64,000 nucleotides of DNA from an uncultured Rhodothermales bacterium (GCA_965651265.1 CBFGRV010000005.1:7708-71707); one strand, 5' to 3'; counted from the first letter of the stretch, positions 6,136 through 37,879 are shown. A program made the numbers and translations. Notes: generated by a model not told the origin, from the sequence alone.

Positions 6136-6146
6136 TTCCGGATCGG

Positions 6147-6851
6147 CTATGGATGCCGGCCCATCGGGGTCTTATCTGACACATCCGTGCCGGGCCCCGG
6201 GATGGATGCATCCATGAGGATGTCGGCGACGCCGCTTCCGACCAATTCCGCGACACGGCTTATCGCCAGATCGTAGTCATCGGCCGCGAGTAGTTCAGGG
6301 ATGCCGGCATCGATCAGGGCATACCACCGTTCCCGTCGCCTCTCAAATGACGGAAAGTGGGCCGACATTGGTGCTCTCAGACGGGCCATCCACTCGAGGA
6401 ATATGGCATACTCCGGGCCAAGCTCGGCCTCCAGCCGCTGGCGCAGTCTTACTGCCAGTGCGGGCGCTGCCCCGGACGTGGAGATGGCTACAGTCAGCTT
6501 CCCTCGCTGGAGGATGGATCCGGCCACGAACGTGCAGTGGGGGACGTCGTCCATGGCATTGATCAAGACCCTCTCGCGCTGAGCTTCCTCCCAGATCGGA
6601 CGGGTGCGCACGGGATCCACGTACGTGACAATCGCCAGGAAAGCGCCGCATAGGTCTCCCTCTTGATAGTCACGGCGATGCCACTCGACATCATATTTCG
6701 ACACGTCAAACTCTGGATCGGCGCCGACGAGAGAAACGGCTGCTTGGCAGGCCAGCAGGCCTTGAATCTTGCGTTCCGCTTCGAGTCCGCTTCCGATGAC
6801 GACACATCGTCGGCCGCCCAGATCATTCAGAAAGATGGGGTAAACCTGCAT
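6147..6851 (-). CDS. Siroheme synthase N-terminal-domain protein (precorrin-2 dehydrogenase / sirohydrochlorin ferrochelatase, SirC/Met8/CysG-N type)
   Basis: MQVYPIFLNDLGGRRCVVIGSGLEAERKIQGLL.. aligns with the CysG N-domain (PIF..L..R.CLVVGGG.VA.RK). Contains ISTSGAAPALA. Start taken at ATG 6851, just after the cysH stop. Confidence 0.75.
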   Translation of the reverse strand: MQVYPIFLNDLGGRRCVVIGSGLEAERKIQGLLACQAAVSLVGADPEFDVSKYDVEWHRRDYQEGDLCGAFLAIVTYVDPVRTRPIWEEAQRERVLINAMDDVPHCTFVAGSILQRGKLTVAISTSGAAPALAVRLRQRLEAELGPEYAIFLEWMARLRAPMSAHFPSFERRRERWYALIDAGIPELLAADDYDLAISRVAELVGSGVADILMDASIPGPGTDVSDKTPMGRHP

Positions 6852-11925: not shown

Positions 11926-11945
11926 GGTTTATCGGTTGCATGTAC

Positions 11946-12995
11946 TCAGGACGCGCGCTCCAATCGCTCCTGCAGCCGAAAAATGGCGGATTCTCGCACG
12001 ATCAAGCGCGCTGCAAAGATTCGACGCACAGGCCCCACCGGGCGTTCGCTCTCCAGATGGCGGAGCAGTTCGTGCGCGGCAGCGTTGCCGATTTCCGTCT
12101 TGGGGATGGCCATCGTGGTCAGCGGCGGGGAAGTATGTGCGGCGATGGGGATATCATCATACCCTATGATGGCCAGGTCGTTCGGGATGCGCAGCCCGGC
12201 TGAACGCGCCACCTCCATCGCGCCGAGCGCCATCAGATCGTTCGCCGCGAATACGGCCTCCGGCGGATCGGCGAACTTGAGAAGTCGGCGCATGGCCGTC
12301 TGCCCGCCACTGAATCGGAAGTCGCCATCGACCACGAAACGGCTGTCGAACTCGACACCTCCGACCTGCAGTGCTCGCCGAAAACCGCGATACTGATTCA
12401 AGCGACCATAGCTCCGACTACCGGGGCCCGTGAGCGGACCCGATATCATCCCGATTCGGGTAAAGCCTTGTTCGATGAGGTGCATCGTGGCGTCAAAAGC
12501 GCCCTGCTCCGAATCCACCAGCAACTTGGTTATGCCCTCGATCCCGTAATCGCGCTCGATGGCCACCACCGGCATCTGAGGGTTCTCTGTTACGAACTCT
12601 TCGACATCCTCCTTCCGTACACAATCCCCGATCAGCACGACGGCATCGACCTGCTTCTCGAGTAGCATCCGATAGTTCTCTTCGCCGATTTGGAAGCTGT
12701 GATTCGAGTCGCATAGAACGAGGGATCGCTCGTGTTTGCGAAGCTCGTGGCTCAAACTGCGCACGATGTCCGTGTAGAAGGGATTGGTGATGTCGGAGAC
12801 GATCACGCCCACGGTGAAACTGCGCCGCGTCTTCAGGCTCTGTGCCAGTCGATTTGGGCGGTAGTTGAGGGCGCGAATGGCCTCCATGACGCGGGCGCGC
12901 GTGGAATGCGGCACCCAATCCGCGTCGTTGATGACGGCGGAGACAGTCGCAATGGACACGCCGCAATGATGTGCTACGTCCTTGATGGTCGGCAT
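11946..12995 (-). CDS. LacI family transcriptional regulator
   Basis: N-terminal HTH MPTIKDVAHHCGVSIATVSAVIN..RVMEAIRALNYRPNRLAQSL followed by a periplasmic-binding-fold sensor domain. Its stop is 20 nt upstream of the fprA start on the same strand. Confidence 0.85.
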   Translation of the reverse strand: MPTIKDVAHHCGVSIATVSAVINDADWVPHSTRARVMEAIRALNYRPNRLAQSLKTRRSFTVGVIVSDITNPFYTDIVRSLSHELRKHERSLVLCDSNHSFQIGEENYRMLLEKQVDAVVLIGDCVRKEDVEEFVTENPQMPVVAIERDYGIEGITKLLVDSEQGAFDATMHLIEQGFTRIGMISGPLTGPGSRSYGRLNQYRGFRRALQVGGVEFDSRFVVDGDFRFSGGQTAMRRLLKFADPPEAVFAANDLMALGAMEVARSAGLRIPNDLAIIGYDDIPIAAHTSPPLTTMAIPKTEIGNAAAHELLRHLESERPVGPVRRIFAARLIVRESAIFRLQERLERAS

Positions 12996-13119: not shown

Positions 13120-15219
13120 ATGTCTGCCGACCCCGAACCGATGCTCGTGGACCGCGAGCTGTCGTGGCTCTCCTTCAATGTCCGCGTGCTGCAGGAAGCA
13201 CAGGATCCGACCGTTCCGCTGTACGAACGGCTTAAATTCCTGGCCATCTATTCGTCCAATCTGGACGAGTTCTTTCGCGTTCGCGTGGCGTCGCTGCGCA
13301 GTCTGCTCCGGCTAAAAAAGAGGGCCGTCGACAAGCTGGGCATCCAGCCGGAAGAGTTGCTCGCTCGGATCCACGAGGTCGTGTCGGCCCAGCAGGAGCA
13401 GTTCGGCGCCACTTTTCGAAACGATATCTTGCCCCTGCTGGAAGAACGCGGCATTCACCTGTTGGATGACGCTGCGTTGAACGATTCACAACGGGCCTAC
13501 CTTCGAGGCTATTTCGATGAGCACGTTCGAGAGCACGTTCACCCGCACGTGCTCGGGGCACAGCCTGCGCCCTTCCTCGAGAACCGGCAGGTCTACCTGG
13601 CCGTGGAGCTGTGGCCGAAGCAACAGGGCGTCGGTCTTTCCGCCGAGGCGCCGAGGATTGGCATCATCGAGGTGCCGAGCCCACCCGTACAGCGTTTCGT
13701 CAGGATGCCGTCTGACGACGGCCGGCATTACGTCATCTTTCTGGATGACGTCATCCGCGTGGCGCTGCCAGAGCTGTTTTCCGGCTTCGATGTGGGGGAG
13801 GCCTATGCTATCAAGTTATCCCGCGATGCGGAGCTGTATCTCGAAGACGAATTTTCCGGAAGCATCGCCGAACAAATTCGAAAGAGCCTCAAGAAGCGTG
13901 AGCGGGGCCTTCCGTGTCGGTTCTTGTACGATTTGCGCGCCTCGTACCATGTCATCGGGATGCTCCAGTCGACCTTCGACCTGGCCGCTGAGGATCTCGT
14001 GTTAGGTGGGCGCTATCACAACCTTCACGATCTGGCCGATTTTCCGGATTTCGGTCTTTCGGATGTCCGCTATGAGAAGCTGCCGCCTCTGCCGCATCCC
14101 GACCTCGAAGGCTCGGCGTCGATCTTCGGCACCATCGCTGAGAAGGACCGCATCCTGCACTTTCCGTACCAGCGCTTCGAGTACGTACTGAAGTTCCTGG
14201 AGCAGGCCGCGGCCGATCCAGACGTGGACTCGATCTGGATCACACTCTACCGGACGGCGCCGAACTCCGCCGTCGTGGGTGCGCTGCTCGAAGCCGCCCG
14301 GCAGGGTAAGCAGGTGACGGCATTCGTGGAGGTAAAAGCCCGATTCGACGAAGCATCCAATCTCGAATGGGCCGCACAGATGGAAGCGGCCGGAGTCCGC
14401 ACGCTGTACAGCTTCCGCGACCTGAAAGTACATGCGAAGATGCTGCTCGTCGGGCGACAGGAGGACGAGCACAAGTGGTACGCGTATCTAAGCACCGGCA
14501 ACTTCAATGAGGCCACGTCCAGAGTGTACGCGGATCACGCTCTCTTTACGGCCGACCCGCGCATCACACAAGAGGTCCGGCGCGTGTTCGCCTTTCTGGA
14601 AGGGGAGGAGAGTAAGCCGGAGTTCGAGCATCTCCTCGTTGCACCATTCTACCTCCGCAAATCCCTCTACAAACTGTTCGATGCGGAGATCGAGCAGGCA
14701 GAGAGCGGCGCGACGGCCCGGTTCATTGGGAAGCTGAATGCCCTTGAAGACGACAAGATGATCTTCAAGCTCTATGAGGCTAGTAGCGCCGGTGTGGACA
14801 TCGAGTTGATCGTGCGTGGCATCTGCTGCCTGGTACCGGGCATGGCCGGGCTAAGCCAGAACATCCGCGCTCGAAGCATCATCGACCGATTCCTCGAGCA
14901 CGCTCGTCTCTTCGTCTTCCACAACGGAGGCGATGAGGTCCACTATCTCGCCTCGGCCGATCTCATGAAGCGCAATTTGAATCGGCGCGTCGAGGTCGCC
15001 TTCCCGGTGTACGATCCCGACCTCCGGGCCGAGTTGCGCGAAATTCTGGAGCTGCAGCGGCAGGACAACGTCAAGGCACGCATCATCGATGCAGAGCAAT
15101 CAAACGGGTACGCGCCACGCGACGGCCGAGAACCGGTTCGAGCCCAAACGGCGACCTACGAGCTGCTGCGCGAGAAGTGGGAGCGTGCGCAACAGGATGT
15201 CGCAGTACCGGTGGCCTGA
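13120..15219 (+). CDS. ppk1: Polyphosphate kinase 1
   Basis: RELSWLSFNVRVLQEA..ERLKFLAIYSSNLDEFFRVRV. Catalytic His context DLKVHAKMLLV. Two PLD-like C-terminal domains. Confidence 0.9.
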   Translation: MSADPEPMLVDRELSWLSFNVRVLQEAQDPTVPLYERLKFLAIYSSNLDEFFRVRVASLRSLLRLKKRAVDKLGIQPEELLARIHEVVSAQQEQFGATFRNDILPLLEERGIHLLDDAALNDSQRAYLRGYFDEHVREHVHPHVLGAQPAPFLENRQVYLAVELWPKQQGVGLSAEAPRIGIIEVPSPPVQRFVRMPSDDGRHYVIFLDDVIRVALPELFSGFDVGEAYAIKLSRDAELYLEDEFSGSIAEQIRKSLKKRERGLPCRFLYDLRASYHVIGMLQSTFDLAAEDLVLGGRYHNLHDLADFPDFGLSDVRYEKLPPLPHPDLEGSASIFGTIAEKDRILHFPYQRFEYVLKFLEQAAADPDVDSIWITLYRTAPNSAVVGALLEAARQGKQVTAFVEVKARFDEASNLEWAAQMEAAGVRTLYSFRDLKVHAKMLLVGRQEDEHKWYAYLSTGNFNEATSRVYADHALFTADPRITQEVRRVFAFLEGEESKPEFEHLLVAPFYLRKSLYKLFDAEIEQAESGATARFIGKLNALEDDKMIFKLYEASSAGVDIELIVRGICCLVPGMAGLSQNIRARSIIDRFLEHARLFVFHNGGDEVHYLASADLMKRNLNRRVEVAFPVYDPDLRAELREILELQRQDNVKARIIDAEQSNGYAPRDGREPVRAQTATYELLREKWERAQQDVAVPVA

Positions 15220-15276
15220 TCAAGAAAATCAGAATGCTCGTCAACCACGTTCTCCCGCTCTCGAGCTGCGAAGTGC

Positions 15277-15783
15277 ATGAAAACGATCCTCTTTTTCCGC
15301 CACGGCAAGTCGGATTGGAAGGCCGGCTTCGGCCAAGACCACGAGCGTCCGATTAACGAACGTGGGCGGTCCGATGTCGGCAGGATGGGGCGCTTTCTGG
15401 TCGGAATCGAATGCCTGCCCGATCGAATCCTTAGCTCGAGTGCGGTTCGTGCCCGCACCACGATGGAGCTGGCTCGCGCGGCAGGAGGCTGGGGAGAGAT
15501 CTCAACGGAGATCACCGACGCGCTTTACGAGGCCTCGCCGTCAGGGGTCCTCGCCCTGGTGCGCGCTCAGAATGACGTGTTTGAGCGTTTGCTGCTGGTC
15601 GGACACGAACCTACCTGGTCCACGCTCATCGGCGGCCTCGTCGGTCAGGCCGCCGTCCGGGTATCGACCGCGACCATGGCGCGCGTGGATTTTCACGCCA
15701 CGAGGTGGAACCAGATCGACTACGGCCGGGGCGAGCTTCGATGGCTCGTGCCGCCGAAACTGGTCAAGAACTTTTTCGAATAG
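15277..15783 (+). CDS. sixA: Histidine phosphatase superfamily protein, SixA-like phosphohistidine phosphatase
   Basis: 168 aa. RHG motif at the N-terminus (ILFFRHGKSDW), SSSAVRARTT, and a later LLVGHEP His motif. Confidence 0.75.
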   Translation: MKTILFFRHGKSDWKAGFGQDHERPINERGRSDVGRMGRFLVGIECLPDRILSSSAVRARTTMELARAAGGWGEISTEITDALYEASPSGVLALVRAQNDVFERLLLVGHEPTWSTLIGGLVGQAAVRVSTATMARVDFHATRWNQIDYGRGELRWLVPPKLVKNFFE

Positions 15784-15795
15784 CCGCCCGGAGTG

Positions 15796-16878
15796 CTACT
15801 GCGCGAGTGCCCGCGTCAAGGCTTGCCGATAGACGGCGGCGTAGCTAGCGATCGTTTGTTCGACGGTCGGGACCTCGACCGCACGCCGCTCCTCTGATCG
15901 TGAGAGGATGGCGTCGATCACCGCGCCCATTTCGTCCGGCGTCTCGCACCGGTGCACTCGGTCGGAATGCCCGGGCGCGCCGACATCGCGGCACACGACG
16001 TGCATTCCGGTTGCGAGCGCCTCGAGAAATACGAAGCCCTGGGCCTCGTACTCGGCTGGATGGAGCAGAATACGCGCATACTGCATGTGGCGGAGTACGC
16101 GGTGTCGAGGCAAAAAGCCGGTAAAGACGACGTTGGCACCGGCTCGAGTCTCGAGAGCCTCACGTAACGGCCCGTCGCCGATCATGCCGAAACGAACGTG
16201 CGGCATCATGTCCGCGACGGCAAGCGCATCCTCCGGCCGCTTCACGGGGATGAGCGATCCAACGTATAGCACGTCGAAGCTCGTGTGGTCACGACCGTCG
16301 GACACCTCCGGCGCCGGGGAAGGAAGATCGCCTAAATCCATCCCCAGGGGGATGATGGCGTCCACCCCGCGCCGTAGTCCACGCCGGGCCGTTTCCGCGG
16401 CCTGATCCGAGCCTGCCGTAAGCACGAACGAGCCACGGCGCAGCCATCTCGCGTAGAGGCCCGGCTGACGAAGCTCCTGTCCGGCAATGCTGGCGACGTG
16501 GCCGCAACGCAAGCGGCGAGCCCCTAACTCGCCCAGCACTGCACATTCGCCGACCCAGAAGCTGTGGAGGAGATCCGGCTGCGCGTCGTTCACGATCCGC
16601 AGCGCGCGTCGCCAGACATCCAACCGGAACAATGAACGGCGATTGCCCGCGCCCAGCGCCCATACGTGGGCTCCATTCCAGTCGTACTCCCTGGACTCAT
16701 ATGGATAGTGGATGGCCAGAACGCCGACCCAATCGGCGATCCCATCCCTCGCGGCCGCACGGACATACGTTTGCACGGCGGGGAGGCAGGTGTCGTCGAG
16801 CTCATCCGCCGGAAATCCTGGCAAGATGAAGAGCAAACGGCGGGGTCGTTGGGCATCCTCCCGGCCCGACCCGTTCAA
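15796..16878 (-). CDS. Glycosyltransferase, GT4 (GT-B, group 1) family
   Basis: C-terminal EX7E-type motif PAEYEAQGFVFLEALATG and VGSLIPVKRPE. There is no in-frame ATG near the domain start. The proposed TTG at 16878 forms a TTGA overlap with the upstream radical SAM stop. Start uncertain. Confidence 0.75.
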   Translation of the reverse strand: MNGSGREDAQRPRRLLFILPGFPADELDDTCLPAVQTYVRAAARDGIADWVGVLAIHYPYESREYDWNGAHVWALGAGNRRSLFRLDVWRRALRIVNDAQPDLLHSFWVGECAVLGELGARRLRCGHVASIAGQELRQPGLYARWLRRGSFVLTAGSDQAAETARRGLRRGVDAIIPLGMDLGDLPSPAPEVSDGRDHTSFDVLYVGSLIPVKRPEDALAVADMMPHVRFGMIGDGPLREALETRAGANVVFTGFLPRHRVLRHMQYARILLHPAEYEAQGFVFLEALATGMHVVCRDVGAPGHSDRVHRCETPDEMGAVIDAILSRSEERRAVEVPTVEQTIASYAAVYRQALTRALAQ

Positions 16879-17909
16879 GGTCGCTGATGCGGCTTTAGAT
16901 TGAGAGTGCACACACAGCGCCGGCAAATCGGATCCTCCACCATGTCGAGGTGCGCTCGAAATTCGGCGGCACGATTTCCGTTGACGATCTCGGTGAGGGG
17001 CTGCTCGCGGATGTTGCCGATAGGCGCATGGAAAAAGCATGGGCGAACGGTCCCATCGGCCTCGACGACGGCCGACACCCACGGCGCATTGCATTGAGGC
17101 ACGGCAAACGTGTCTTCGTCGATGAGCGCTCGATAATAGCGCACGAGTCCTCGGATCTGATCCGGCGACTCGGCGACGAATCCGGATGAAAAGTCCTTGC
17201 GATGCGTGCGCAGGAGCGCATTCACGACGAGGTCGAAATGAGTGATCTCCTCAGGAGTCAGGGCGACATCGGCCGTGCCCTGCCAGGGGATCTCGCGATT
17301 GAACGCGCTGCTCGAGACGTCCGCCGCCAGAAACGAGATGCGATCGACGGGGAGGGCCTTTGCGGTATCGATGATGTTGGCGATGTCGAAGTAGTTTCGG
17401 CGCTGGATTACGCATCGAGCCGTGATGCGCATCTTGGGCTTTACCGCTCGAAGCGCCTTTACGCCTGCCTGCAGCTTCGCACTCGCTCCATCCACATTTC
17501 GGATGCGGTCGTGTACACGTGGGCTGCCATCGAGCGAGACGATCACCTCGTGGCACCATTTCGCGATTTCCTCCGCATGCGGTTTCAGGAGGATGCCGGA
17601 GCTGAGAAGGGTGATCTTGATCTTTAGCTGCCGAAGCAGCTGGCACAATACCCAGAGGTTGCTGTGCATCAGGGCCTCGCCGCCGGAAAGCACGACCCGC
17701 CGCACGCGCAACCGTTTGAAATCTGCCAGATGCGGCGCGATGTCGTCGGTAGTCAGCTCGCGCCGCTCACGATTCGCCTTCCAGATGTCGCACATCACGC
17801 AGCGGCAGTTGCAGCCGCTGTGCGGCATCAAGACGAGAACCGGAAGCGCCCGGATCTTTCCGTTCGCCAGCGACCGCTTTCTCTGGATGTAGTCAATCGG
17901 AGATACCAT
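16875..17909 (-). CDS. Radical SAM protein with C-terminal SPASM/twitch-type auxiliary-cluster region
   Basis: CX3CX2C motif (SGCNCRCVMC) and SGGEALMH. C-terminal CX12GX4C (CNAPWVSAVVEADGTVRPC) followed by CRRCVC. Confidence 0.8.
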   Translation of the reverse strand: MVSPIDYIQRKRSLANGKIRALPVLVLMPHSGCNCRCVMCDIWKANRERRELTTDDIAPHLADFKRLRVRRVVLSGGEALMHSNLWVLCQLLRQLKIKITLLSSGILLKPHAEEIAKWCHEVIVSLDGSPRVHDRIRNVDGASAKLQAGVKALRAVKPKMRITARCVIQRRNYFDIANIIDTAKALPVDRISFLAADVSSSAFNREIPWQGTADVALTPEEITHFDLVVNALLRTHRKDFSSGFVAESPDQIRGLVRYYRALIDEDTFAVPQCNAPWVSAVVEADGTVRPCFFHAPIGNIREQPLTEIVNGNRAAEFRAHLDMVEDPICRRCVCTLNLKPHQRP

Positions 17910-17948
17910 TCGCCAAGCACAAAAGGAGAATCCCGCCCGAATGCCGCC

Positions 17949-19442
17949 TCAAAACCCCGTGGTTTCCGGCCTCTGATACCGGATCAGCTTCTGGAGGGCG
18001 AGCAGCTCGAGCGGCATCGCGTAGATCTGGAGTCGATAACGCCAGGCGCTGAGCCCGCGGAGCAGCAGGCGCATTCCGGGGCTCAATTTCGTGTCTGTGA
18101 CGGTAGGATAAAAGGCGTTCACGACGCGTTCGAAATTCCGAACCCGTCGCCGCAACGGATCCCTCAACCACCACGATACTCCGGTGCGTCGCTGCGCGAA
18201 TTCTTGCCACTCCTCACTGACCCACTCGTCTAGCGCTGTCGGGAATCGAAAGCCACTCGCCACCGCACTGTCATACAGCTCGCCGGCGAGAGGCACCGGG
18301 GTGTACATGTAAAAGATGGTTTCGGCATCCGGATGGACGGCCTTAAGGCGCCGCACGAATCGAAGCGTTTCGGCCACATCACGCTCCGGTTCCGGTGGAT
18401 TGCCGAGTACGAAGGAGAATTCCGGGATGATGCCGTACGATCGCATCACGGCGGCGAGCTCGAGCGTTGCCTCGGCTGAGGCCTTTCCGCCTTTGTTCAT
18501 TCGGCGGAGCGTTTCATCCGACCCCGATTCGGCGCCCAGGAAAACCATCCGAAGACCGCTTCGCTGCATCAGTCGCCAGGTTGCCGCATCGTACTTGAGC
18601 AGCGTGTCGATGCGTGCCTCACCCCACCATCCGATACCGTGATGTGCGATGCGGTCGGCGAATTCGGCCGTCCGTTTCTCACTAACGAAAAAGTTGTTGT
18701 CGTAAAATTCCACGGCATCGGCGCCAAAGCGATCGACAAGGTGCGTAACCGTCGCAGCCGTGCGTTCCGCCGATTGCGCCTTCCACCGACCATCTACCAT
18801 GTTCACGACCGCACAGAAGTTGCATCGAAAGGGGCAGCCGTAGCTCGAGTGATGAGGCAGCGTGCGCACACCCATAAAAGTGCGACGGACGTAGCGCTCT
18901 ACGGGCACGCGATGGTAGGGGAAATCGGGCAGATCATCAGGATCTGGAATAGGGGCCGGCGCCACCGCTTCCCGTGCCGACGTACTCGTGACGACACCTG
19001 GGATTCCGTCCGTGCTGCGCCCCTCGCGCAGCGCCCTGAGAAACGACAGGAAGCAATGCTCGCCGTGTCCGGCAACAACCACATCGACATAATCCGATCG
19101 AAGGCACACCTCGGCATGCTGCGTGGGGAAGTACCCGCCCCAGACGATCTTAACATCCGGCCGCTCGCGCCGCAGCCGCCGGGCCGCACGCACGGCATCC
19201 GTCAGCTGCGGTCCCCCCATCACCGTAATGCCCAGCACCGTCGCGCCCAGATCATCGATGGCGCTCACCAGGTCTTCGTGCCTCTCCAGATTGCCATCCA
19301 CGATCCGGTAATCGAACTCACCCTCCAGCAGAGCACCGACGGCGAGCAGGGCCATCGGAAGGACGGGCTTGCGCGAGGCGGAACTCTGGGGATTGTAGAG
19401 GATGACGGTTGGATGCCGCATGGAGCGAATGGTGTGCCTCAC
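17949..19442 (-). CDS. B12-binding-domain radical SAM protein (class B), paralog 3
   Basis: N-terminal Rossmann-like cobalamin-binding region (VILYNPQSS..LPMALLAVGALL..ATVLGITVMGG). Radical SAM motif YGCPFRCNFC. GTG 19442 forms a GTGA overlap with the upstream stop; alternative ATG at 19421. Confidence 0.8.
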   Translation of the reverse strand: MRHTIRSMRHPTVILYNPQSSASRKPVLPMALLAVGALLEGEFDYRIVDGNLERHEDLVSAIDDLGATVLGITVMGGPQLTDAVRAARRLRRERPDVKIVWGGYFPTQHAEVCLRSDYVDVVVAGHGEHCFLSFLRALREGRSTDGIPGVVTSTSAREAVAPAPIPDPDDLPDFPYHRVPVERYVRRTFMGVRTLPHHSSYGCPFRCNFCAVVNMVDGRWKAQSAERTAATVTHLVDRFGADAVEFYDNNFFVSEKRTAEFADRIAHHGIGWWGEARIDTLLKYDAATWRLMQRSGLRMVFLGAESGSDETLRRMNKGGKASAEATLELAAVMRSYGIIPEFSFVLGNPPEPERDVAETLRFVRRLKAVHPDAETIFYMYTPVPLAGELYDSAVASGFRFPTALDEWVSEEWQEFAQRRTGVSWWLRDPLRRRVRNFERVVNAFYPTVTDTKLSPGMRLLLRGLSAWRYRLQIYAMPLELLALQKLIRYQRPETTGF

Positions 19443-21124
19443 ATCACGCTGAAAACAGTTAACGTCTCGTTCCAGTGACGCTTCTCGTCAACGCGTGCGA
19501 GTCGGTATCCACTCGCCTCCAGAAGCCGGAGGTATTCATCGGACACCCCATCCGAAGACAGCACGATCAGCGCTATTCCTTCAGGATTGAGGTGCTGCCG
19601 CAGATTCGCAGAGAAGCGGGACATAACGTCGTCAGACCGCCATGCGAGATCGAACGTCGACCTCGGTGAACCGCAGTAGTACGGGGGATTGAAGAGGACG
19701 ACGTCAAATCTCCCGAGGTCGCCGAAGAGGTCGGCTTCGAGGGCCTCGATTCGGACACCGTTCTCCGCAGCGTTCTGGCGCGTCGTGGTCACGGCCAACG
19801 GATTGATGTCGACGGCGATGACGTCTGCTCCACGAAGCGCCGCCGCGATGCCGCAGATGCCTGTTCCGCAACCCAGATCGAGGACGCGCGCGCCACGCGG
19901 TAGCAGGTCATCCAGAATGAGGCCGGCGAGATATGCACCGGAGCGAAACACGATGGGATGGAAGAGGCCGGGCGAAATTCGAAGCGATATGCCGCGGAAA
20001 CACTCGACCACCGGACGCTCCAGCCGATGCCGCTGGGCCAAGACGAACCGCAACCGAAGCGCATTCCGTCCGACAGCCTGAAGGATGCGGTGCGGCTTCA
20101 TCTCGACGATCGCGACGCCGGATGGCAGGTGGGTCCGCCCCTCGAGTAGCGGGAAATCTGCCGTTCCACGGCGATTTCGAATACCGGCTACGAGCCTGCG
20201 TGCGCTCCATCGAAGGCCATGCTTCGGCCGGTGCACGGTCCAGGTGATTCTGCAAGCGGCCGAGAGCTGCCGCATTCGCTCATGCGTGAGAAAGTTCTCG
20301 GAGGCCAGCGCATCCGATGCTATTCCGTACTGGCGCGCAAATCTCTGCCGGCGCTCCTCCACCATCCGCATGCCGCTTCGGGGCGAGCGATACACAGGCG
20401 AGTCGACGACGGCGATCTTACCCTGCGGGCCAAGGACGCGTATCGCCTCTCCCAGTGTGGCCTCATACCGTTCGGAATAGTGGAGAGCGGCATTGAAAAT
20501 CACGAGGTCGAAGCTGGCCGATTCGAAAGGGAGTCGATCATAGTCAGCGGCAACGCATGCGAAATTGCTTGAGTAATGGACGCGAGCTCCTAGTCCGTCG
20601 AGGCTGTCCGTGCGGACATCCACAGCGCAGACGCGGTGACCCCGCAGAGCCAGCCTGTTGGACATCCATCCGTTTCCCGCGCCGACATCGAGAATGCGCA
20701 GAGGCTCAACGAGGTCGGAGCGCATCCGTTCGAGCGGATGGACGAGCTTTTCGAGCAGGCAATCGAAACTTGCTGCGCGGATCCTCCAGTCCCGGGAGAA
20801 TCGCCCGGTGACGTCGACATACGGTAGCGCGCGATAGTATTCCGACGCCGGGTTCCCGCGGCCCTCGCGGCGCCGGATCAAACCGTATTCCGCGACGAAT
20901 CGGCGGAGCCTGTCGAGCCGATCGGGCGCGATCATCTCCCAGATGCCGTTCACCCTGTGGAACGTGACACCCTGGTGGCTGCAGCGCAGCTCGTCAACTC
21001 CGATGGAGACGAGTGGGGCGCCACACATCGGACACGCTAACCGGAGCCACTCGGCTGCCGGATCGATATCGGATGCTGCCTTATGCCCTGCCGCAAAGGT
21101 TTCCGTTGGGCTATGTTCACTCAT
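19439..21124 (-). CDS. Fusion protein: Zn-ribbon + class I SAM methyltransferase + second small-domain (HemK/PrmC-like, NPPY) methyltransferase
   Basis: Zn-ribbon LACPMCGAPL..LRCSHQG. First motif I ILDVGAGNGW with FDLVIFNAALHY. Second motif I VLDLGCGTGICG with FDVVLFNPPYY (NPPY). ATGA overlaps at both ends. Confidence 0.7.
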   Translation of the reverse strand: MSEHSPTETFAAGHKAASDIDPAAEWLRLACPMCGAPLVSIGVDELRCSHQGVTFHRVNGIWEMIAPDRLDRLRRFVAEYGLIRRREGRGNPASEYYRALPYVDVTGRFSRDWRIRAASFDCLLEKLVHPLERMRSDLVEPLRILDVGAGNGWMSNRLALRGHRVCAVDVRTDSLDGLGARVHYSSNFACVAADYDRLPFESASFDLVIFNAALHYSERYEATLGEAIRVLGPQGKIAVVDSPVYRSPRSGMRMVEERRQRFARQYGIASDALASENFLTHERMRQLSAACRITWTVHRPKHGLRWSARRLVAGIRNRRGTADFPLLEGRTHLPSGVAIVEMKPHRILQAVGRNALRLRFVLAQRHRLERPVVECFRGISLRISPGLFHPIVFRSGAYLAGLILDDLLPRGARVLDLGCGTGICGIAAALRGADVIAVDINPLAVTTTRQNAAENGVRIEALEADLFGDLGRFDVVLFNPPYYCGSPRSTFDLAWRSDDVMSRFSANLRQHLNPEGIALIVLSSDGVSDEYLRLLEASGYRLARVDEKRHWNETLTVFSVM

Positions 21125-21954
21125 CGCCGCCGCATCTCGATGATGAAATGATCGCTCAGGTTGGCCGCGACTCGCAGGTGCCGGATCGGTTGCTCCAGGC
21201 GAAAGAGGCTATTGGCAAGAACCGGCCGCTTCTCGATCAATGAGGCCGCGTAGGAGGGGGGAATCAGCACGCCCATTGCCGATGTCCGCACCGTATCAAA
21301 GTGAGGGCTGAATTCGCGCGCTATTGCGGCCGGTGTGGTGTAGTGCACGGTAGCCCCTCGAAATGGGGCCGCCCCGCCTAGCCGGCGGAACGCACTCCGA
21401 GGCCGACCGCGCGCCAGGTACCAGCCCCACTCCCAGGGGCAGTACCTCCCAATCACGACAAAAAGAGCCCATCCCTCCGGCCGGACCACGCGAGCGAGGC
21501 GTTGCGCGAAAGCGGGTCGATCTGCAATACAATTGAGGACCCCGAAGTTCGCCAGCGCCAGATCGAAGGGGCCATCTGGCAGGTGGCCGGTGGCGACGTC
21601 GGCGACCTCGAACGTCGGCTCGGCGCCGAGCGGTAGGGCAGCCTGGGCTGCCTTTGCCCGCGCGAGCCCAATCATTCGGGGTGAAGCATCGATCCCAAGA
21701 GCGCGTATGCCCCGTCTTGCAAGCCAGAGGACATCCTCGCCGGTGCCGCATCCAAGGTCGAGCACACGATCACCGGCATGGGTGATTCGTGCAAGCTCGT
21801 TGTGCACGATGCCGCGAAGACGCCTCGCGACCTGCGTGTTTGAGAATTCCGAATCGTACCCATCCGCCACCTCGTCGAATGTCGGAGGAGTGCCAACGTC
21901 TGGCCATGTCGTGTTCCGTGCGCTACGCATGGACCCGGCCTGGCTCGCGTTCAT
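21121..21954 (-). CDS. Class I SAM-dependent methyltransferase
   Basis: Motif I VLDLGCGTGEDVLWLARRG and post-I GIDASPRM. Alternative ATG at 21930 would reduce the overlap with the upstream gene from 32 to 8 nt. Confidence 0.75.
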   Translation of the reverse strand: MNASQAGSMRSARNTTWPDVGTPPTFDEVADGYDSEFSNTQVARRLRGIVHNELARITHAGDRVLDLGCGTGEDVLWLARRGIRALGIDASPRMIGLARAKAAQAALPLGAEPTFEVADVATGHLPDGPFDLALANFGVLNCIADRPAFAQRLARVVRPEGWALFVVIGRYCPWEWGWYLARGRPRSAFRRLGGAAPFRGATVHYTTPAAIAREFSPHFDTVRTSAMGVLIPPSYAASLIEKRPVLANSLFRLEQPIRHLRVAANLSDHFIIEMRRR

Positions 21955-23329
21955 GGCCCGTCAGCAGCATTCCGATCCGGCCGGCCTGGGACGCAACGAA
22001 ATGCCGCGCGAGATGGACGGGGTTCGATGCGCCTCGCTGCCGTTCGCGATGCAGCGCCCACGTGTTCACCACCCAACGGTTAGCGTGGACGAAGTACCGA
22101 CGCGAGCGGCGTCCAGCCACCGTGAGATCGCGATCCGACCCATCACTCCACGATCTCAGCGCCACGACGCGGTCCGCCACCTCTTCGTAGTAGGGGGTGC
22201 CTTTTATGGGATAGGCAAGCGTGGTCAGGAGCCGATCCGGCATCGCCCTTTTCAGGCATTCGACCGTTTCGCGCAGGTCAGCTTCCGTCTCACCTTCGTA
22301 GCCAAGCATGATGAACATCCCCGCCTCGATTCCATGTCGCTGCAGAAGCTGGACGACCTCCGGCACGCGTGCGGCGTTCGTGCGGCGCTTCATCCGATCC
22401 AGGACGCTCTGAGACCCGCTCTCGCTGCCGATCCACAATCTAAAGCACCCCATTTCCGCCAGCCTCCGCGCGACCTCCTCATCGATTCGATCCTCACGCG
22501 AGATCGTTTCAAAAGGAATCCGGATCGAACGCCGCTCGAGCTCGTCCGCGTAGGCGCGAAACCAGCTTGGCTTGATGGTGAACACGTCATCCGCGTACCA
22601 CAACATGTCGGGTCGATATCGATCCAGGATGAACTCCACTTCGTCGGCCACATTCTGCGGTGAGCGCCGCCTGTGCGAGTAGCCGAAAACGGAGTGGCTG
22701 CACCACGTGCACGTGTACGGGCATCCGCGTGCGGTGATGAGCGAGACGGAGCCGCGCCCGTGATGCCTGCGCCACGCTTCCAGATAAAGATCCAGGTCGA
22801 TGGCCGCTCGATCCGGAAAGGGGAGGGCATCCAGATTCTGGATGAACGGGCGCGGGGGCGTCGCGATGATCTCATCACCTTGCTTGAACGCGATGCCGGC
22901 AATGCCATGAAGTTGCTGCAGACCGCTCTCGATCAGATGCGGCAAGAGCTCGCGCATGGTCGCCTCTCCCTCGCCAATCACGACGACATCCGCGCCGTGC
23001 GCCAGATACCTATCTGGATAGTTGGCCGGCTCCGGACCGCCAACGACGACCCTTGCCCCGTACCGCCTGGCCGTATGGATCAAGCGAAGAGCCGACGGCC
23101 TCGTGATCAGATTGCAGTAGATGCCGACAACAGGCGGCCGATCTTGTTGAAGGATGCGCTCGAATTCCGTGCGGTGCCTGAACGTAGAATCGAAGACGGC
23201 TACATCAAAGTCGTGAGCCTTGAGGTATGCAGAGATATAGAGCAACCCCAGCGGCGGATAGGGGCGCATCACCTCGCGTTCCTGCGGGTCCTCGCTGAGG
23301 AAATAGGCGTGCGTCAGAAGGACATCCAT
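21923..23329 (-). CDS. B12-binding-domain radical SAM protein (class B), paralog 2
   Basis: MDVLLTHAYFLSEDPQEREVMRPYPPLGLLYISAYL.., VVIGEGE, and radical SAM motif RGCPYTCTWC. Clearly paralogous to the next gene upstream. Confidence 0.8.
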   Translation of the reverse strand: MDVLLTHAYFLSEDPQEREVMRPYPPLGLLYISAYLKAHDFDVAVFDSTFRHRTEFERILQQDRPPVVGIYCNLITRPSALRLIHTARRYGARVVVGGPEPANYPDRYLAHGADVVVIGEGEATMRELLPHLIESGLQQLHGIAGIAFKQGDEIIATPPRPFIQNLDALPFPDRAAIDLDLYLEAWRRHHGRGSVSLITARGCPYTCTWCSHSVFGYSHRRRSPQNVADEVEFILDRYRPDMLWYADDVFTIKPSWFRAYADELERRSIRIPFETISREDRIDEEVARRLAEMGCFRLWIGSESGSQSVLDRMKRRTNAARVPEVVQLLQRHGIEAGMFIMLGYEGETEADLRETVECLKRAMPDRLLTTLAYPIKGTPYYEEVADRVVALRSWSDGSDRDLTVAGRRSRRYFVHANRWVVNTWALHRERQRGASNPVHLARHFVASQAGRIGMLLTGHEREPGRVHA

Positions 23330-24762
23330 GCTCGGCGCCGGGCGACGGGGAGAGTGATGCCATGGTAGAGGAGAGCGGCTGCCTCACGAAGCAGCTCGGC
23401 AGGACGGAGACGCGTTTCGCGCTTCGCAAAGTACTCGCGGAGCCTGGCAGACGCTTTGCGCATCCTGAATTCCTTGTGGAGGGTGCTGTGCAACCGTCGG
23501 TACACCTCGGTTCCGAAGGCGCCCCTGTACATCATCGCGAGGTCGTCCGAATCCGTCCAGTTCTGCTTGGCTCCGAGCTGGTCACGCACGCGGTCGAAGA
23601 ACGGTGTACCTGGAAGCGGATAGGACACGGAAACCCCGATTCGGTCCGGGTTGCATTCCCGCACGAGCGCGAACGTCGCCTCGATGTCCTCACGCGTCTC
23701 GCCGAGGTAGCCGAGCTGGATGAAGAAGCCCACCTCGATTCCGGCCTCGTGGAGCCGCCGCGTGGCTTCGCGCACTTGCTCGACTCGAATGCCTTTGTCC
23801 ATCGCATCGAGGACCTCTTGTGAGCCGGATTCCACGCCGGTCCATACCGACTCGCAGCCTGCGCGGCGGAGTGCCTCGATCTCGCCTGGACGGAGCAGCA
23901 AGTCGACACGGCTCAGGCACTTGAACGGCGTTCTAAGCCCTTGCTCTTCAACCAGACCGGCAAACCTCTGGAGCCATCCGGGTTTTATCCCCACGATATC
24001 GTCCATAAACCAGATGTGCTCCGCCCCGAAGCTATCCCGAAGAAGCTGCAGTTCTTCGACCACGTTCTCGGGAGAGCGCGCATGGTATCGCTGGCCCCAG
24101 ATTGGTTTCGCGCACCAATTGCAGTGGAAGGGGCATCCCCGCGAGGTCACGATGTTGAGCGAGAATCTGCCGTGCCGGCGCTCCCAGATGCCGCGGTACC
24201 GTTCGATGTCCACGAGGTCCCAAGCTGGGAGAGGGAGGTCGTCCAGGTTTCGGATGACGGCTCGGGGCGGGGTGCGCTCGACGCCGCCTGCGACCGGCAA
24301 CGCCAGGCCGTCGACTTCGTCTCGGTGGGCCCAATTTGCGAGGAGCTCGACGAGCGTGCGTTCACCCTCGCCGATGATCACGGCATCCGCACCGGCCGTC
24401 AAATAGGGCTCTGGCCGATCCGAGGCATCGGATCCCGCGACCACCACCCTGCATCCTCGCTGCTTTGCGGCGCCGATCATTCGCATCGCCGCCTCCCGCA
24501 TCCGGAGCAGGCACATCTTCGAGAGGTAGTTGAAGTTGTCTTCGTACAGAATGGCGAACGACGGACGATGGCGCTCCAGAGCCTGGGTCCATTCGTCCTC
24601 CGATGTGGCCAGCATCGAATCGTGTAGCGAGACATCCCATCCTTGCCCGCGAAGAACCGCCGCCGCATAGAGGGCGCCGAGCGGCGGATACGGCTCCATC
24701 GCGTCCCACAGTTTGGGATCGAAGCGGAGATGGTAGGCCTGTCCGATGAGAACGTCGCTCAT
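23314..24762 (-). CDS. B12-binding-domain radical SAM protein (class B), paralog 1
   Basis: Start at ATG 24762 (MSDVLIGQAYHLRFDPKLWDAMEPYPPLGALYAAAVL), an ATGA overlap with the upstream stop. AVIIGEGE. Radical SAM motif RGCPFHCNWC. Confidence 0.8.
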   Translation of the reverse strand: MSDVLIGQAYHLRFDPKLWDAMEPYPPLGALYAAAVLRGQGWDVSLHDSMLATSEDEWTQALERHRPSFAILYEDNFNYLSKMCLLRMREAAMRMIGAAKQRGCRVVVAGSDASDRPEPYLTAGADAVIIGEGERTLVELLANWAHRDEVDGLALPVAGGVERTPPRAVIRNLDDLPLPAWDLVDIERYRGIWERRHGRFSLNIVTSRGCPFHCNWCAKPIWGQRYHARSPENVVEELQLLRDSFGAEHIWFMDDIVGIKPGWLQRFAGLVEEQGLRTPFKCLSRVDLLLRPGEIEALRRAGCESVWTGVESGSQEVLDAMDKGIRVEQVREATRRLHEAGIEVGFFIQLGYLGETREDIEATFALVRECNPDRIGVSVSYPLPGTPFFDRVRDQLGAKQNWTDSDDLAMMYRGAFGTEVYRRLHSTLHKEFRMRKASARLREYFAKRETRLRPAELLREAAALLYHGITLPVARRRAWMSF

Positions 24763-25835
24763 GCCGCCGATCCGTATTCCCCTGCGAAAAGGCCTGGCCA
24801 GTCGTAAACGGCTTCGACCTCCGACCGATTGCGCATTTCCGGAGGGAAGAAAGGCGCGAGGTGGGCGTCGTCCGTCGAGCATCCGAGTGCCTTACGGATG
24901 CGCCGTTGGAAAAGGCATGCCACTACGCCGGCATAGCCACCCTCGGGCACGGTGTAGCGACCGAGCTTGTAGGCCGGCGCAATCCGCATCCAACACCAGC
25001 CTCGAAGAGAGGCGCGAGCGCGGTAGGCCTGGACGAAGGCGGAATACAGCAGCCTGTTCAGGGCATCGCCTACCCGGCCCAGCAGCATCCGCTCGACGAT
25101 GCGCGTCAAGAAGGGACGAGGTGGCTCCGGCACTCGATGATTCGTTTCGCCGGTCGCCGCGGTATTGGGCAGCAGCCGCGACGTCCACCGGTTTGCATGG
25201 CGAAATCTCGTGTGAACGTCCTTCCCCCAAAGTGGCACGGCCTGGACGATTTCGTGGGCCGTGAACAGATTCTCATCTGGAACCCGCAGGCAGGATTCAT
25301 CGAGCAGGTAGTTCGGACAGAGCCGGGCGTCGAAAAACGCGGTGCGTCGCGTCAAACGCGCCAGGGGAACGATAAACAGGCGAGAAATCCACAATCGATT
25401 CGATGCCGTGATGCAGAACAGATCGACATCGCACGTCGGACCCGCATTTCGAACGGCGAGCGATCCGGACACCGCCACCGACCGGACGAACGGGACGAAC
25501 CGGAGCCAACCGGCATATCGTTGTGCCTGCTTCCACAGTAGCCTGGCCCGCATTTCGCGTCGTCGCCGTAGACGGATCAAGCGTTCGCGGCCGCGAAGGC
25601 ACACAAACTTTCCCGTATCATAAAGGATGTCGGGCCCGATGTCGCTGAGGCACTGCGTCAGGCGGGCCCGGTCTAGTTGAACTCCGATCACACGGACCAG
25701 CAGCTCGTCGTGCGACAATGCAAAATCGAAGAGGTCGGCATAAACGACGGCAAGCAGGACGCCACGCCGCCGTTCATCCTCGTCGCTCTTGGTCGTTTGC
25801 AGGGGCGGGTCAACCAGTTCAGGCGAGATTTTCAT
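24759..25835 (-). CDS. Hypothetical protein with nucleotidyltransferase-fold (Pol-beta-like GS..DxD) signature; first gene of the radical SAM operon
   Basis: VSGSLAVRNAGPTCDVDLFCIT fits the G-S-x(9-13)-D-x-D minimal NTase motif. No other family was recognised. Start is ATG 25835 (MKISPE) or further upstream at 25865. Confidence 0.5.
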   Translation of the reverse strand: MKISPELVDPPLQTTKSDEDERRRGVLLAVVYADLFDFALSHDELLVRVIGVQLDRARLTQCLSDIGPDILYDTGKFVCLRGRERLIRLRRRREMRARLLWKQAQRYAGWLRFVPFVRSVAVSGSLAVRNAGPTCDVDLFCITASNRLWISRLFIVPLARLTRRTAFFDARLCPNYLLDESCLRVPDENLFTAHEIVQAVPLWGKDVHTRFRHANRWTSRLLPNTAATGETNHRVPEPPRPFLTRIVERMLLGRVGDALNRLLYSAFVQAYRARASLRGWCWMRIAPAYKLGRYTVPEGGYAGVVACLFQRRIRKALGCSTDDAHLAPFFPPEMRNRSEVEAVYDWPGLFAGEYGSAA

Positions 25836-25890
25836 GGGGCCGCACGGACTTCTGAACGAGCACAACGATGATCAACGGACTCAAGCGCCC

Positions 25891-27366
25891 GTGAGGCAGG
25901 CCGCTACAGATGTCGGACCTGCGCGCGGCACGCTCGCGCGAATCGGACTCATCTCAGGGGCTGCCGTAGCGATTGCGATTCTCCTGATTCCAGCTCCGAT
26001 GGGGCTGTCAGTCCCAGCCTGGAGGACGGCAGCCGTCGGTGCACTCATGGCGATCTGGTGGATGACGGAAGCCATTCCCATCCCCGCCACCGCCCTCTTG
26101 CCCCTCGCGTTGTTTCCGCTCCTCGGGGTCGCCGACATCAGCGAGGCCGCGGCGCCCTACGCCAATCCGCTCATCTTTCTCTTCCTCGGCGGATTCATCG
26201 TAGCGATCGCGATGGCGCGATGGAGTCTTCACCGCCGGATCGCCCTCCGAATCATCCATCTCGTTGGTGTTCAACCGCGCCGAATAGTTACGGGCTTCGC
26301 CATTTCTGCTGCCTTCCTGAGCATGTGGGTGAGCAACACGGCAACGGCCTTGATGATGTTGCCCATCGGACTCTCCATCGTGGAACTCGTGCAACGCCGC
26401 GCTGACCCAGCTGCATCGCCATCGGATGACGGCGGCAAATTTGCGACATGTCTCGTCCTGACCATCGCCTATGCCTGCAGCATAGGAGGGATGGCGACGC
26501 TCATCGGCACGCCCCCGAATGCCTTTTTCGCGGGCTTCATGCTGGAGACCTACGGGCGCTCCATCGGATTTCTCGAGTGGATGGGCATCGGCCTTCCGCT
26601 GGTAATCTGCACGCTTCCCATCCTCGTTCTGATGCTGACGCGGCTTCTCTTTCCGTTCCGAATCTTGGAAATCCATGGTGGCAGACAATTTGTCGCCGAT
26701 TCCCTGGTGCGGCTGGGCCCCCTTTCGCGCGGCGAGCGACTTGTTGCGATCGTCTTCACGGCCACGGCTTTCCTATGGATTTCGCGCCCCTTGCTCGAAT
26801 CCGTTCTTCCGGGGCTCTCGGATGCCGGGATTGCCATCACCATGGGGCTCGTCCTATTCATTCTGCCCGTGGATGCCGGCCGTGGCGAATTCGTGCTCCG
26901 GTGGAAGGATGCCGAGAAAGTGCCGTGGGGTGTTCTCATCCTGTTCGGAGGGGGACTGAGCCTGGCCTCCGCGATCGATCAGACCGGGCTGGCAGCGTGG
27001 ATAGGTGTGCAGGCAGCCGCGCTCGGAGGATGGCATCCCTTCATCCTCATCCTTGCGGTGGTAGCCACGATCGTGCTCCTGACGGAGCTGACGAGCAACA
27101 CGGCAACGGCCGCGGCCTTCGTCCCGATCGCTGCCTCGATGGCCGTGGGGCTCGGATACGACGCTCTGATGTTCGCCGTCCCGGTGACCCTCGGCGCGAG
27201 TGCGGCCTTCATGCTGCCCGTGGCCACGCCACCTAACGCCATCGTGTATGGGACGGGGATGGTGAGCATCCCCCAGATGGCGCGTGGGGGTCTGGCCCTC
27301 AATCTTATTTTTGCCGTACTGCTGAGCGCCGCGGGCTACCTGCTCGTCCCAGTGCTTTTCGCTTGA
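25891..27366 (+). CDS. DASS/SLC13-family anion:sodium symporter
   Basis: Two hairpin SNT motifs (WVSNTATALMMLPI and LTSNTATAAAFVPI) and MAIWWMTEAIPIPATALLP. The start is uncertain: the ORF opens at 25789, GTG 25891 is proposed, and ATG 25834 would overlap the divergent gene start. Confidence 0.8.
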   Translation: MRQAATDVGPARGTLARIGLISGAAVAIAILLIPAPMGLSVPAWRTAAVGALMAIWWMTEAIPIPATALLPLALFPLLGVADISEAAAPYANPLIFLFLGGFIVAIAMARWSLHRRIALRIIHLVGVQPRRIVTGFAISAAFLSMWVSNTATALMMLPIGLSIVELVQRRADPAASPSDDGGKFATCLVLTIAYACSIGGMATLIGTPPNAFFAGFMLETYGRSIGFLEWMGIGLPLVICTLPILVLMLTRLLFPFRILEIHGGRQFVADSLVRLGPLSRGERLVAIVFTATAFLWISRPLLESVLPGLSDAGIAITMGLVLFILPVDAGRGEFVLRWKDAEKVPWGVLILFGGGLSLASAIDQTGLAAWIGVQAAALGGWHPFILILAVVATIVLLTELTSNTATAAAFVPIAASMAVGLGYDALMFAVPVTLGASAAFMLPVATPPNAIVYGTGMVSIPQMARGGLALNLIFAVLLSAAGYLLVPVLFA

Positions 27367-37817: not shown

Positions 37818-37879
37818 TTCGATGGAATCTGGACGTGCACTTGAAGAGGTGCGTGGGACGCCTCCTTTTGATGGAATCT
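37818..37879. repeat. 13-nt direct repeat TT(C/T)GATGGAATCT, two copies 49 nt apart in the divergent region; the second copy contains the icmF ATG
   Basis: ttcgatggaatct at 37818-37830 and tttgatggaatct at 37867-37879, read directly. Confidence 0.7.

Follow-up and report, generated by a model that had tools for sequence, protein, structure and literature searches.

Class B radical S-adenosylmethionine (SAM) enzymes, also called B12-radical-SAM enzymes below, are known to take part in the biosynthesis of antibiotics, pigments, and hopanoids and in a few protein modifications. In the hopanoids, HpnI, HpnK, and HpnJ (a glycosyltransferase, a deacetylase, and a B12-domain radical SAM enzyme) remodel a lipid-attached amino sugar, and in the proteusin polytheonamide, the PoyB/C/D/E set brings together several class B C-methylases, an N-methyltransferase, and an extra radical SAM enzyme. 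In gentamicin biosynthesis, GenD1 adds a C-methyl and GenN an N-methyl group to an amino sugar (PMC4340712). In fosfomycin biosynthesis, the class B enzyme Fom3 acts only on the cytidylylated 2-hydroxyethylphosphonate (2-HEP) that comes from Fom1 (PMC8158854). That class B radical SAM enzymes can tailor sugars is already known from the aminoglycosides. Here we describe eight genes (g1 to g8) from an uncultured Rhodothermales bacterium (GCA_965651265.1 CBFGRV010000005.1:7708-71707; this whole stretch of 64,000 nucleotides is called the window below) that lie close together in one operon and encode four radical SAM enzymes, a nucleotidyltransferase (NTase)-fold protein, a GT4 glycosyltransferase, and, in two further proteins, three methyltransferase domains. 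With confidence only a little above even, we read the operon as one version of a modular, horizontally mobile cassette that tailors a sugar of a cell-surface glycan; a Wzx/Wzy-type polymer or lipid-linked repeat unit is the most likely target. The direct support comes from the domain content and structure of the operon, its co-conservation across phyla, its association with glycan genes, and the domain fusions of g1.

The likeness to gentamicin tailoring (GenK/GenD1, GenN, and the GT4 enzymes GenM1/M2) lies in the combination of several B12-radical-SAM enzymes, an MTS-type N-methyltransferase, and a GT4, which in gentamicin serve one sugar scaffold. Unlike that pathway, the cassette comes without cyclitol or aminotransferase machinery, counts a nucleotidyltransferase among its core members, and is found in Wzx/Wzy loci of Rhodothermales and Chloroflexota, not in actinomycete antibiotic clusters. 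Its radical SAM enzymes are not orthologues of the gentamicin enzymes either; their best curated matches stay below 160 bits and include no gentamicin family. A nucleotidyltransferase paired with a B12-radical-SAM methylase would also recall Fom1 and Fom3, as a functional resemblance only. The transferase domain of Fom1 is of a different fold class from the Pol-beta/MNT/ANT-like one of g1, and neither phosphoenolpyruvate (PEP) mutase nor any other phosphonate gene was found in the operon or in the flanking products scanned. With the hopanoid enzymes, the cassette shares HpnJ as the top curated match of g2 and, in some of its versions, amidohydrolases, but HpnJ is matched at 125 bits where the cutoff is 577.6, no hopanoid genes lie nearby, and both taxa and neighbours differ. 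The proteusin set is similar in its enzyme types, whereas the cassette has no precursor peptide, leader, protease, or transporter and belongs to a glycan-assembly context.

A literature search found no account of the cassette or of B12-radical-SAM enzymes in polysaccharide loci, and a 2026 review of class B radical SAM enzymes makes no mention of polysaccharides, glycans, or sugars. In Pfam and NCBIfam, the eight proteins are placed at the superfamily level only, and no member reaches a curated-enzyme equivalog cutoff except for the C-terminal domain of g5 (TIGR00537). A preliminary description of the window had called the system undescribed, and this is a reasonable term for it. Its most original elements are the unnamed family of g1 and the fixed pairing of g1 with g2.

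A cassette shared across phyla

Relatives of g1 were sought in one genome per GTDB species. They were present in 234 species, and 80 loci were kept, with the eight window proteins mapped onto all of their open reading frames (ORFs). The Rhodothermales among these loci carry full-length g1 at 44-52% identity. Many others are from Chloroflexota (Anaerolineae, Chloroflexia, Caldilineae, and Ardenticatenia), one is from Acidobacteriota, and one from Elusimicrobia; two Gammaproteobacteria and one Microgenomates have g1 alone. At least one B12-radical-SAM gene is present in 68 of the 80 loci, and such a gene comes directly after g1 in 51 of the 75 with enough downstream sequence. The orthologues of g2, which in most loci occupy that position, score 600-730 bits across phyla and are far better conserved than g1. 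Downstream of g2, the combinations of g3, g4, the two halves of g5, g6, g7, and GT4 vary, and some loci have after g2 a fourth type of B12-radical-SAM gene that is missing from the window. Orthologues of g3 are present in 29 of the 80 loci, those of g4 in 44, and those of g6 in 28.

Six or more of the window's families occur together in eight loci. One Chloroflexota locus (L079) has all eight families, with 62% identity for g2, 64% for g3, 59% for g6, and 52% for g7, and with a GT4 near the cassette; in two Rhodothermales loci (L013 and L017), g8 orthologues follow g7. The cassette is co-conserved across Rhodothermales, Chloroflexota, Acidobacteriota, and Elusimicrobia, and the "orphan" operon of the preliminary description is therefore one member of a widespread group. 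The level of identity between the radical SAM enzymes of different phyla (52-64%) suggests that the cassette has moved horizontally as one block.

The nearest relative, L017, is from an uncultured Rhodothermales metagenome-assembled genome. Its g7 is 81% identical to that of the window and its g1 and g8 only about 51%, compared to 74% for the flanking transporter and 71% for the flanking kinase. The g3 orthologue of L017 (12489-12953) matches only the first 155 residues, at 70% identity, while g1, g2, and g4 to g8 are intact, and this may be the decay of one radical SAM gene. In another locus with a Rhodothermales-type cassette (L091), a gene for a 166-residue 23S_rRNA_IVP (four-helix-bundle) protein stands between the g6 and g7 orthologues (18706-19206).

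Association with glycan assembly

The neighbours of the cassette were surveyed by clustering 498 neighbouring proteins and scanning the representatives. Among the 80 loci, the recurrent neighbours are GT4 enzymes (25), Wzy-like proteins with multiple transmembrane segments (21), and Wzx-type flippases (11), along with GT-C/PMT_2 proteins, Wzy_C proteins, and membrane GT2 proteins directly upstream of g1. A first census by bulk Pfam counts had given a modest signal (4 GT4, 4 PMT_2, and 3 Wzy_C among 101 proteins) in a sample weighted to short-cassette loci; the clustering and representative scan gave a clearer one. In 52 of 81 loci, many of which are short, at least one such glycan gene lies within 6 kb. 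Glycan-assembly genes also become less frequent farther from the cassette, at 26% of the genes within 0-2 kb, 17% at 2-4 kb, and 14% at 4-6 kb. Several loci show the arrangement well. In the Rhodothermales loci L008 and L091, the cassette lies immediately downstream of a Poly_export-Wzz/GNVR-Wzy_C-Polysacc_synt-glycosyltransferase cluster, and in L007, a Wzy_C protein is encoded just upstream. A distant version, L010, has g1 and one B12-radical-SAM gene within a Bac_transf/GT4/Wzx/Wzy/GT2 cluster, and L093 has a WecA-type Glycos_transf_4 gene upstream. Location within a Wzx/Wzy locus is seen for L008, L091, L010, L079, and others; in the window, g8 is the only glycan-assembly component among the genes scanned.

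Two accessory genes fit the picture of glycan tailoring. An Amidohydro_1 gene, found within the cassette in six loci, could encode a sugar N-deacetylase. A PNP_UDP_1 gene, whose product resembles nucleosidases of methylthioadenosine, S-adenosylhomocysteine (SAH), and 5'-deoxyadenosine, is present in six short cassettes (L028, L041, L054, L068, L069 at 5773-6621, and L083), and this product could clear the 5'-deoxyadenosine and SAH left by the radical SAM enzymes and methyltransferases.

The fusions of g1 are more direct evidence than the neighbourhood for a link between the g1-g2 pair and glycan assembly. Among the best 150 profile hits, the g1 domain is fused to another domain in six proteins, and the partner is a complete GT4 in four of them, a cellulose-synthase-like GT2 in one, and Wzy_C in one. 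A GT4::g1 gene is followed by a B12-radical-SAM gene in a cluster with three more glycosyltransferase genes, an amidohydrolase, and a methyltransferase. The Wzy_C::g1 ORF (L094) is intact on its contig; its stop overlaps the start of the next gene, a g2 orthologue with 58% identity to the window protein. A glycan substrate is favoured because both the cassette neighbours and the fusion partners of g1 are polysaccharide-assembly genes. The preliminary description had found no recognisable substrate gene; this is true of the window, but the neighbours and fusions elsewhere point to a glycan.

A different arrangement is seen in six Chloroflexia loci (L038, L046, L056, L063, L074, and L084). Here, g1 comes after two multi-pass membrane proteins of about 790 and 875 residues, the second of the GT-C/PMT_2 type, and is followed by a D-Ala-D-Ala carboxypeptidase gene. 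In four of them (L038, L056, L074, and L084), B12-radical-SAM genes are found a few kilobases away in the opposite orientation. This arrangement is a cell-wall-linked variant.

The g1 family

The product of g1, the marker gene of the cassette, begins with a winged-helix-like domain, has a nucleotidyltransferase core of the Pol-beta type, and ends in a helical domain. On its own, it has no match in Pfam or NCBIfam, and 40 of 51 members of its family match PF01909 weakly. In the alignment of these 51 members, G124-S125 and D136-x-D138 are invariant, and the N-terminal domain is conserved with an invariant Y-A-D-x-F-D motif. The motif hG[GS]x9-13Dh[DE]h, together with the core fold, places g1 among the Pol-beta-type nucleotidyltransferases. 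An AF2 model of g1 (pLDDT 92) was compared to the PDB with Foldseek, and the only matches were MNT, ANT(4'), AadA, AAD(9), DrrA, and GlnE, all of them weak (E-values of 0.014 or worse and low TM-scores). A profile search of the PDB with the family found nothing past the motif and no solved relative.

The family is large: a word-seeded search gave 134 relatives, and a full profile search gave 7,008 cluster representatives at E<=0.001 and 3,366 at E<=1e-30. It is unnamed and has neither a Pfam model nor a solved relative. A LicD/fukutin-type phosphotransferase was considered and rejected, as no family member was matched even at E=1. With ANT(4'), AadA, AAD(9), and the MNT antitoxins, g1 shares the Pol-beta core, the G-S...DxD signature, and the layout of a nucleotidyltransferase domain followed by a helical one; unlike them, it has the extra conserved N-terminal domain with its Y-A-D-x-F-D motif. 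Enzymes of the ANT type adenylylate sugar hydroxyls. From its motifs, g1 looks like an active Pol-beta-type nucleotidyltransferase in which the sites predicted to bind the nucleoside triphosphate and the metal are intact.

The predicted tailoring enzymes and their nearest known families

The class B assignment of g2, g3, and g6 follows from their matches to PF02310 (49-74 bits) and PF04055 (54-82 bits) and from their CX3CX2C motifs. The SPASM/twitch assignment of g7 follows from PF04055 (63.6 bits), PF13186 (54.1 bits), and five Cys in the C-terminal domain. Pfam agrees with the domain identities first proposed for g2 to g8, and the NTase fold proposed for g1 is borne out by the family alignment and the model. 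Two known chemistries were tried and rejected. One is that of BchE (TIGR02026), the anaerobic Mg-protoporphyrin cyclase, for which the best score, that of g3, is 158.9 bits against a cutoff of 481.35. The other is phosphonate P-methylation, for which the scores to PhpK (120 bits against 600) and Sden_1168 are far under the cutoffs and no PEP mutase was found.

Some of the matches bring to mind a lipid. The top curated match of g2, as noted, is HpnJ; g2 also matches TIGR04072, a "lipid biosynthesis B12-binding/radical SAM protein," at 115 bits, and HpnR (96 bits; cutoff 650) is also among its top matches. The best curated matches of g8, all weak, are to glycolipid synthases (IagA/BgsA, MGlcDAG synthase, and GlcN-PG synthase). 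One could therefore consider a cassette that tailors a glycolipid or membrane lipid, with the radical SAM enzymes methylating or cross-linking an alkyl or polyprenyl chain or a head group and the GT4 adding a sugar, in the manner of hopanoid HpnI/HpnK/HpnJ or HpnP/HpnR chemistry. The short cassette of L092, which has g1, two B12-radical-SAM genes, and a methyltransferase, adjoins a block of KAS III, carboxyltransferase, ketoreductase, and GH3 genes, and this would suit such a role. However, the scores fall far short of the 360-650 bits that these families require, genes of lipid synthesis are not among the recurrent neighbours of the 80 loci, and the fusion partners of g1 (GT4, GT2, and Wzy) include no lipid enzyme. 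In the parts of the window scanned, there is no squalene-hopene cyclase and there are no hpn genes; the flanks are of the housekeeping kind. We regard a lipid target as unlikely. Near the cassette and this block in L092, two short ACR_tran fragments of 103 and 146 residues (1993-2304 and 9432-9872) are followed by a full-length RND pump gene (14900-18934), and they may be the trace of an insertion into a pump gene.

The closest solved structures lean, weakly and not decisively, to sugar-modifying enzymes. In Chloroflexota, each half of g5 has a gene of its own. The N-terminal half (approximately residues 25-330) has a Cys-rich ribbon and a Methyltransf_25/11 domain, and the C-terminal half (approximately residues 350-560) is MTS/HemK-like with the sequence FNPPYY. 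Among solved structures, this C-terminal half scores highest to GenN, the N-3'' methyltransferase of gentamicin (54.7 bits), ahead of HemK2. The closest to g6 is AprD4 of apramycin biosynthesis (51.8 bits), which is also the next after 9ccb for g2 and g3; the closest to g7 is BlsE, a cytosylglucuronate decarboxylase of nucleoside-sugar metabolism (36 bits). The weak matches of g1 to aminoglycoside nucleotidyltransferases point in the same direction.

These likenesses would also suit a diffusible product, aminoglycoside-like or of the nucleoside-sugar kind, made from a sugar of primary metabolism. The enzyme types of the operon match those of gentamicin and apramycin tailoring (GenK/GenD1, GenN, AprD4, BlsE, GT4, and an ANT-like nucleotidyltransferase) (PMC4340712; PMC5819394), and the version in the window stands alone between housekeeping genes. 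Against a small molecule, no scaffold enzyme is encoded in or beside the operon: among the eight and the flanking products, there is no cyclitol-forming enzyme such as 2-deoxy-scyllo-inosose synthase, no sugar aminotransferase, and no dedicated exporter or resistance gene. Relatives of the cassette lie within Wzx/Wzy loci and are fused to Wzy and GT2 membrane proteins. The number of radical SAM and methyltransferase genes varies by genome, which is more like the diversity of surface glycans than a fixed pathway. A diffusible product is, in our judgment, slightly less probable still than a lipid target.

A proposed tailoring pathway

The substrate class, the order of the steps, and methylation as the radical SAM chemistry are what we infer for the preferred reading, that of a surface glycan. 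In this scheme, g8, or glycosyltransferases encoded elsewhere, would put a sugar, probably an amino sugar, on a carrier or acceptor. A hydroxyl or phosphate of the sugar-bearing intermediate, lipid- or nucleotide-linked, would then be nucleotidylated by g1, and the nucleotide would serve as a recognition handle or activating group for g2, the fixed partner. This handle model is drawn from Fom3, which needs the cytidylylated product of Fom1. The B12-radical-SAM enzymes g2, g3, and g6 would alkylate, most likely methylate, unactivated carbons, and g7 might carry out an oxidation, decarboxylation, or epimerisation at the sugar. O- and N-methyls would be added by g4 and the two domains of g5, with the NPPY domain targeting an amino or amide nitrogen. 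The logic of sugar methylation is modelled on the precedent of GenD1 and GenN.

If the cassette does C-alkylate surface glycans, the envelopes of Rhodothermales and Chloroflexota would hold new sugar structures. The g1 nucleotidyltransferases, which number in the thousands and lack a Pfam model, would gain a role, and the "nucleotide handle" logic would have its second case after fosfomycin biosynthesis. The pair of g1 and g2 is a concrete one for in vitro work. One could go further, tentatively and with the odds against it, and propose that the g1 family tags a lipid-linked or polymeric sugar with a nucleotide, that up to four B12-radical-SAM enzymes then make multiply C-methylated or rearranged sugars new to bacterial glycans, and that this is the first class B chemistry on a surface polysaccharide and a module for surface diversification that passes between phyla.

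Several observations weigh against a surface-glycan role. The window itself has no Wzx, Wzy, or initiating transferase among the approximately 30 genes scanned, and its flanks are housekeeping genes. About a third of the related loci, many of them short contigs, have no glycan gene within 6 kb. In the comparison of glycan-gene share by distance, the values past 6 kb are biased, since the reference set was drawn from genes within 6 kb. The matches to sugar-modifying enzymes are all weak (36-70 bits). Methylation by g2, g3, and g6 is an assumption, because the class B radical SAM repertoire also includes reactions other than methylation, among them cyclisation and ring contraction. Finally, two of the matches are to enzymes that modify proteins. 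The closest solved structure for both g2 and g3, at approximately 70 bits, is 9ccb, a protein-modifying enzyme cited in a paper on MgmA, the MCR glutamine methylase. The C-terminal half of g5, over residues 410-560, scores 105.8 bits against the cutoff of 87 for TIGR00537 (HemK2/MTQ2, a protein-glutamine methyltransferase), the sole curated cutoff passed by any of the eight proteins.

These last two matches, along with the NPPY motif of g5 and weak matches to ApyD (94-112 bits against a cutoff of 750) and to the RiPP (ribosomally synthesised and post-translationally modified peptide) C-methylase family TIGR03975 (72-82 bits against 281.85), would suit a cassette that modifies a protein or ribosomal peptide encoded elsewhere. 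Its reactions would be C-methylation in the manner of MgmA, Mmp10, or PoyC, N-methylation of Gln or Asn in the manner of HemK2 or PoyE, and glycosylation. The RiPP scores are far under their cutoffs, however, as is that to the MCR glutamine methylase family (104 bits against 360). No precursor peptide with an NHLP/Nif11-type leader was found. In and around the cassette in about 80 loci, no family of small ORFs is common to more than two closely related loci, which makes a RiPP unlikely. As the preliminary description had noted, there is no room for a precursor gene: nowhere within the operon are two genes more than 39 nt apart, and g1 is preceded by a divergent intergenic stretch of 56-163 nt. 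The operon and flanking products scanned include neither a protease nor a leader-binding (RRE) protein nor an ABC exporter. No candidate target protein recurs beside the cassette, and what does recur is glycan-assembly genes. We consider a protein or peptide target the least probable of the alternatives, and quite improbable. The same description had likened the operon to proteusin-type RiPP and hopanoid tailoring, but that resemblance is only the generic similarity of class B radical SAM enzymes.

Operon layout and genomic setting

ORF calling and translation of the window place eight co-directional ORFs on the minus strand between 15796 and 25865 (Table 1), about 10 kb, all where the preliminary description had put them. 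It had the place and order of the genes right, and two of its starts need to be moved. In public assemblies, g1 starts at ATG 25835, not at TTG 25865, and the former is likely the true start; in gene calls and public assemblies, g8 starts at 16878, not at 17094. The junctions were read again from the sequence and agree with the overlapping starts and stops reported before. They are ATGA for g1/g2 and g4/g5, GTGA for g5/g6, TTGA for g7/g8, an overlap of 16 nt for g2/g3, and one of 8 or 32 nt for g3/g4. The only gap, and so the widest spacing inside the operon, is the 39 nt between g6 and g7; if g6 begins at its alternative ATG, a gap of 17 nt would take the place of the g5/g6 overlap. The same locus, with an identical g5, is on more than 20 metagenome contigs and is therefore not an assembly artefact.

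Table 1. Genes of the operon and other features of the window
Feature	Coordinates	Strand	Description
g1	24759-25835	-	NTase-fold protein, 358 aa; marker gene of the cassette
g2	23314-24762	-	class B radical SAM; PF02310 + PF04055, CPFHCNWC; conserved partner of g1
g3	21923-23329	-	second class B radical SAM; PF02310 + PF04055, CPYTCTWC
g4	21121-21954	-	class I SAM methyltransferase, Methyltransf_25/11/23; 277 aa, or 269 aa from ATG 21930
g5	19439-21124	-	Cys-ribbon + class I methyltransferase fused to MTS/HemK2-like NPPY methyltransferase
g6	17949-19442	-	third class B radical SAM; PF02310 + PF04055, CPFRCNFC; start GTG 19442 or ATG 19421
g7	16875-17909	-	radical SAM with SPASM/twitch auxiliary-cluster domain; PF04055 + PF13186
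g8	15796-16878	-	GT4, 360 aa, TTG start; Glycos_transf_1 + Glyco_trans_1_4
DASS transporter	25999-27366	+	Na/sulfate or dicarboxylate type; divergent from g1
ThuA protein	35361-37814	-	ThuA + glucose/sorbosone dehydrogenase, with Por_Secre_tail
IcmF-like protein	37835-41326	+	1,163 aa; fused B12-binding/MeaB GTPase/methylmalonyl-CoA-mutase
DUF294 protein	43658-45598	+	cNMP-binding + CBS + DUF294 putative nucleotidyltransferase
Antisense ORF	21533-22663	+	long ORF antisense to the operon
Antisense ORF	18639-19478	+	long ORF antisense to the operon
Antisense ORF	10537-12396	+	long ORF antisense to a flanking gene

On one side, the operon is flanked by genes for polyphosphate kinase (Ppk), a histidine phosphatase, a LacI regulator, and a sulfite/nitrite reductase. 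On the other are a divergent DASS transporter, PEP carboxykinase (PEPCK), and a PAS-GAF histidine kinase. The DASS transporter is beside g1 in four other Rhodothermales loci as well (L013, L014, L015, and L017). This adjacency is probably lineage synteny and not functional, because other Rhodothermales have the cassette in exopolysaccharide loci instead.

Scans of the window against Rfam and for tRNA genes gave no matches, and scans for sigma-70 promoters and terminators gave hits at the chance level. Since Bacteroidota-type promoters depart from the sigma-70 consensus, the promoter scan says little here. GC content is even across the window. The three long plus-strand ORFs antisense to the operon or a flanking gene are most likely by-products of the 61% GC and not genes; the one at 10537-12396, the sole one scanned, has no Pfam match.

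Other genes of the window bear on the host. The identity of 71-74% between the flanking proteins and those of L017 points to a Rhodothermales-like bacterium, of a species outside the GTDB representatives scanned. The IcmF-like protein indicates that the use of cobalamin by the organism extends beyond the operon. The Por_Secre_tail of the ThuA protein is a sorting signal of the type IX secretion system and fits a Bacteroidota/Rhodothermota-type host. The DUF294 putative nucleotidyltransferase is unrelated to g1.

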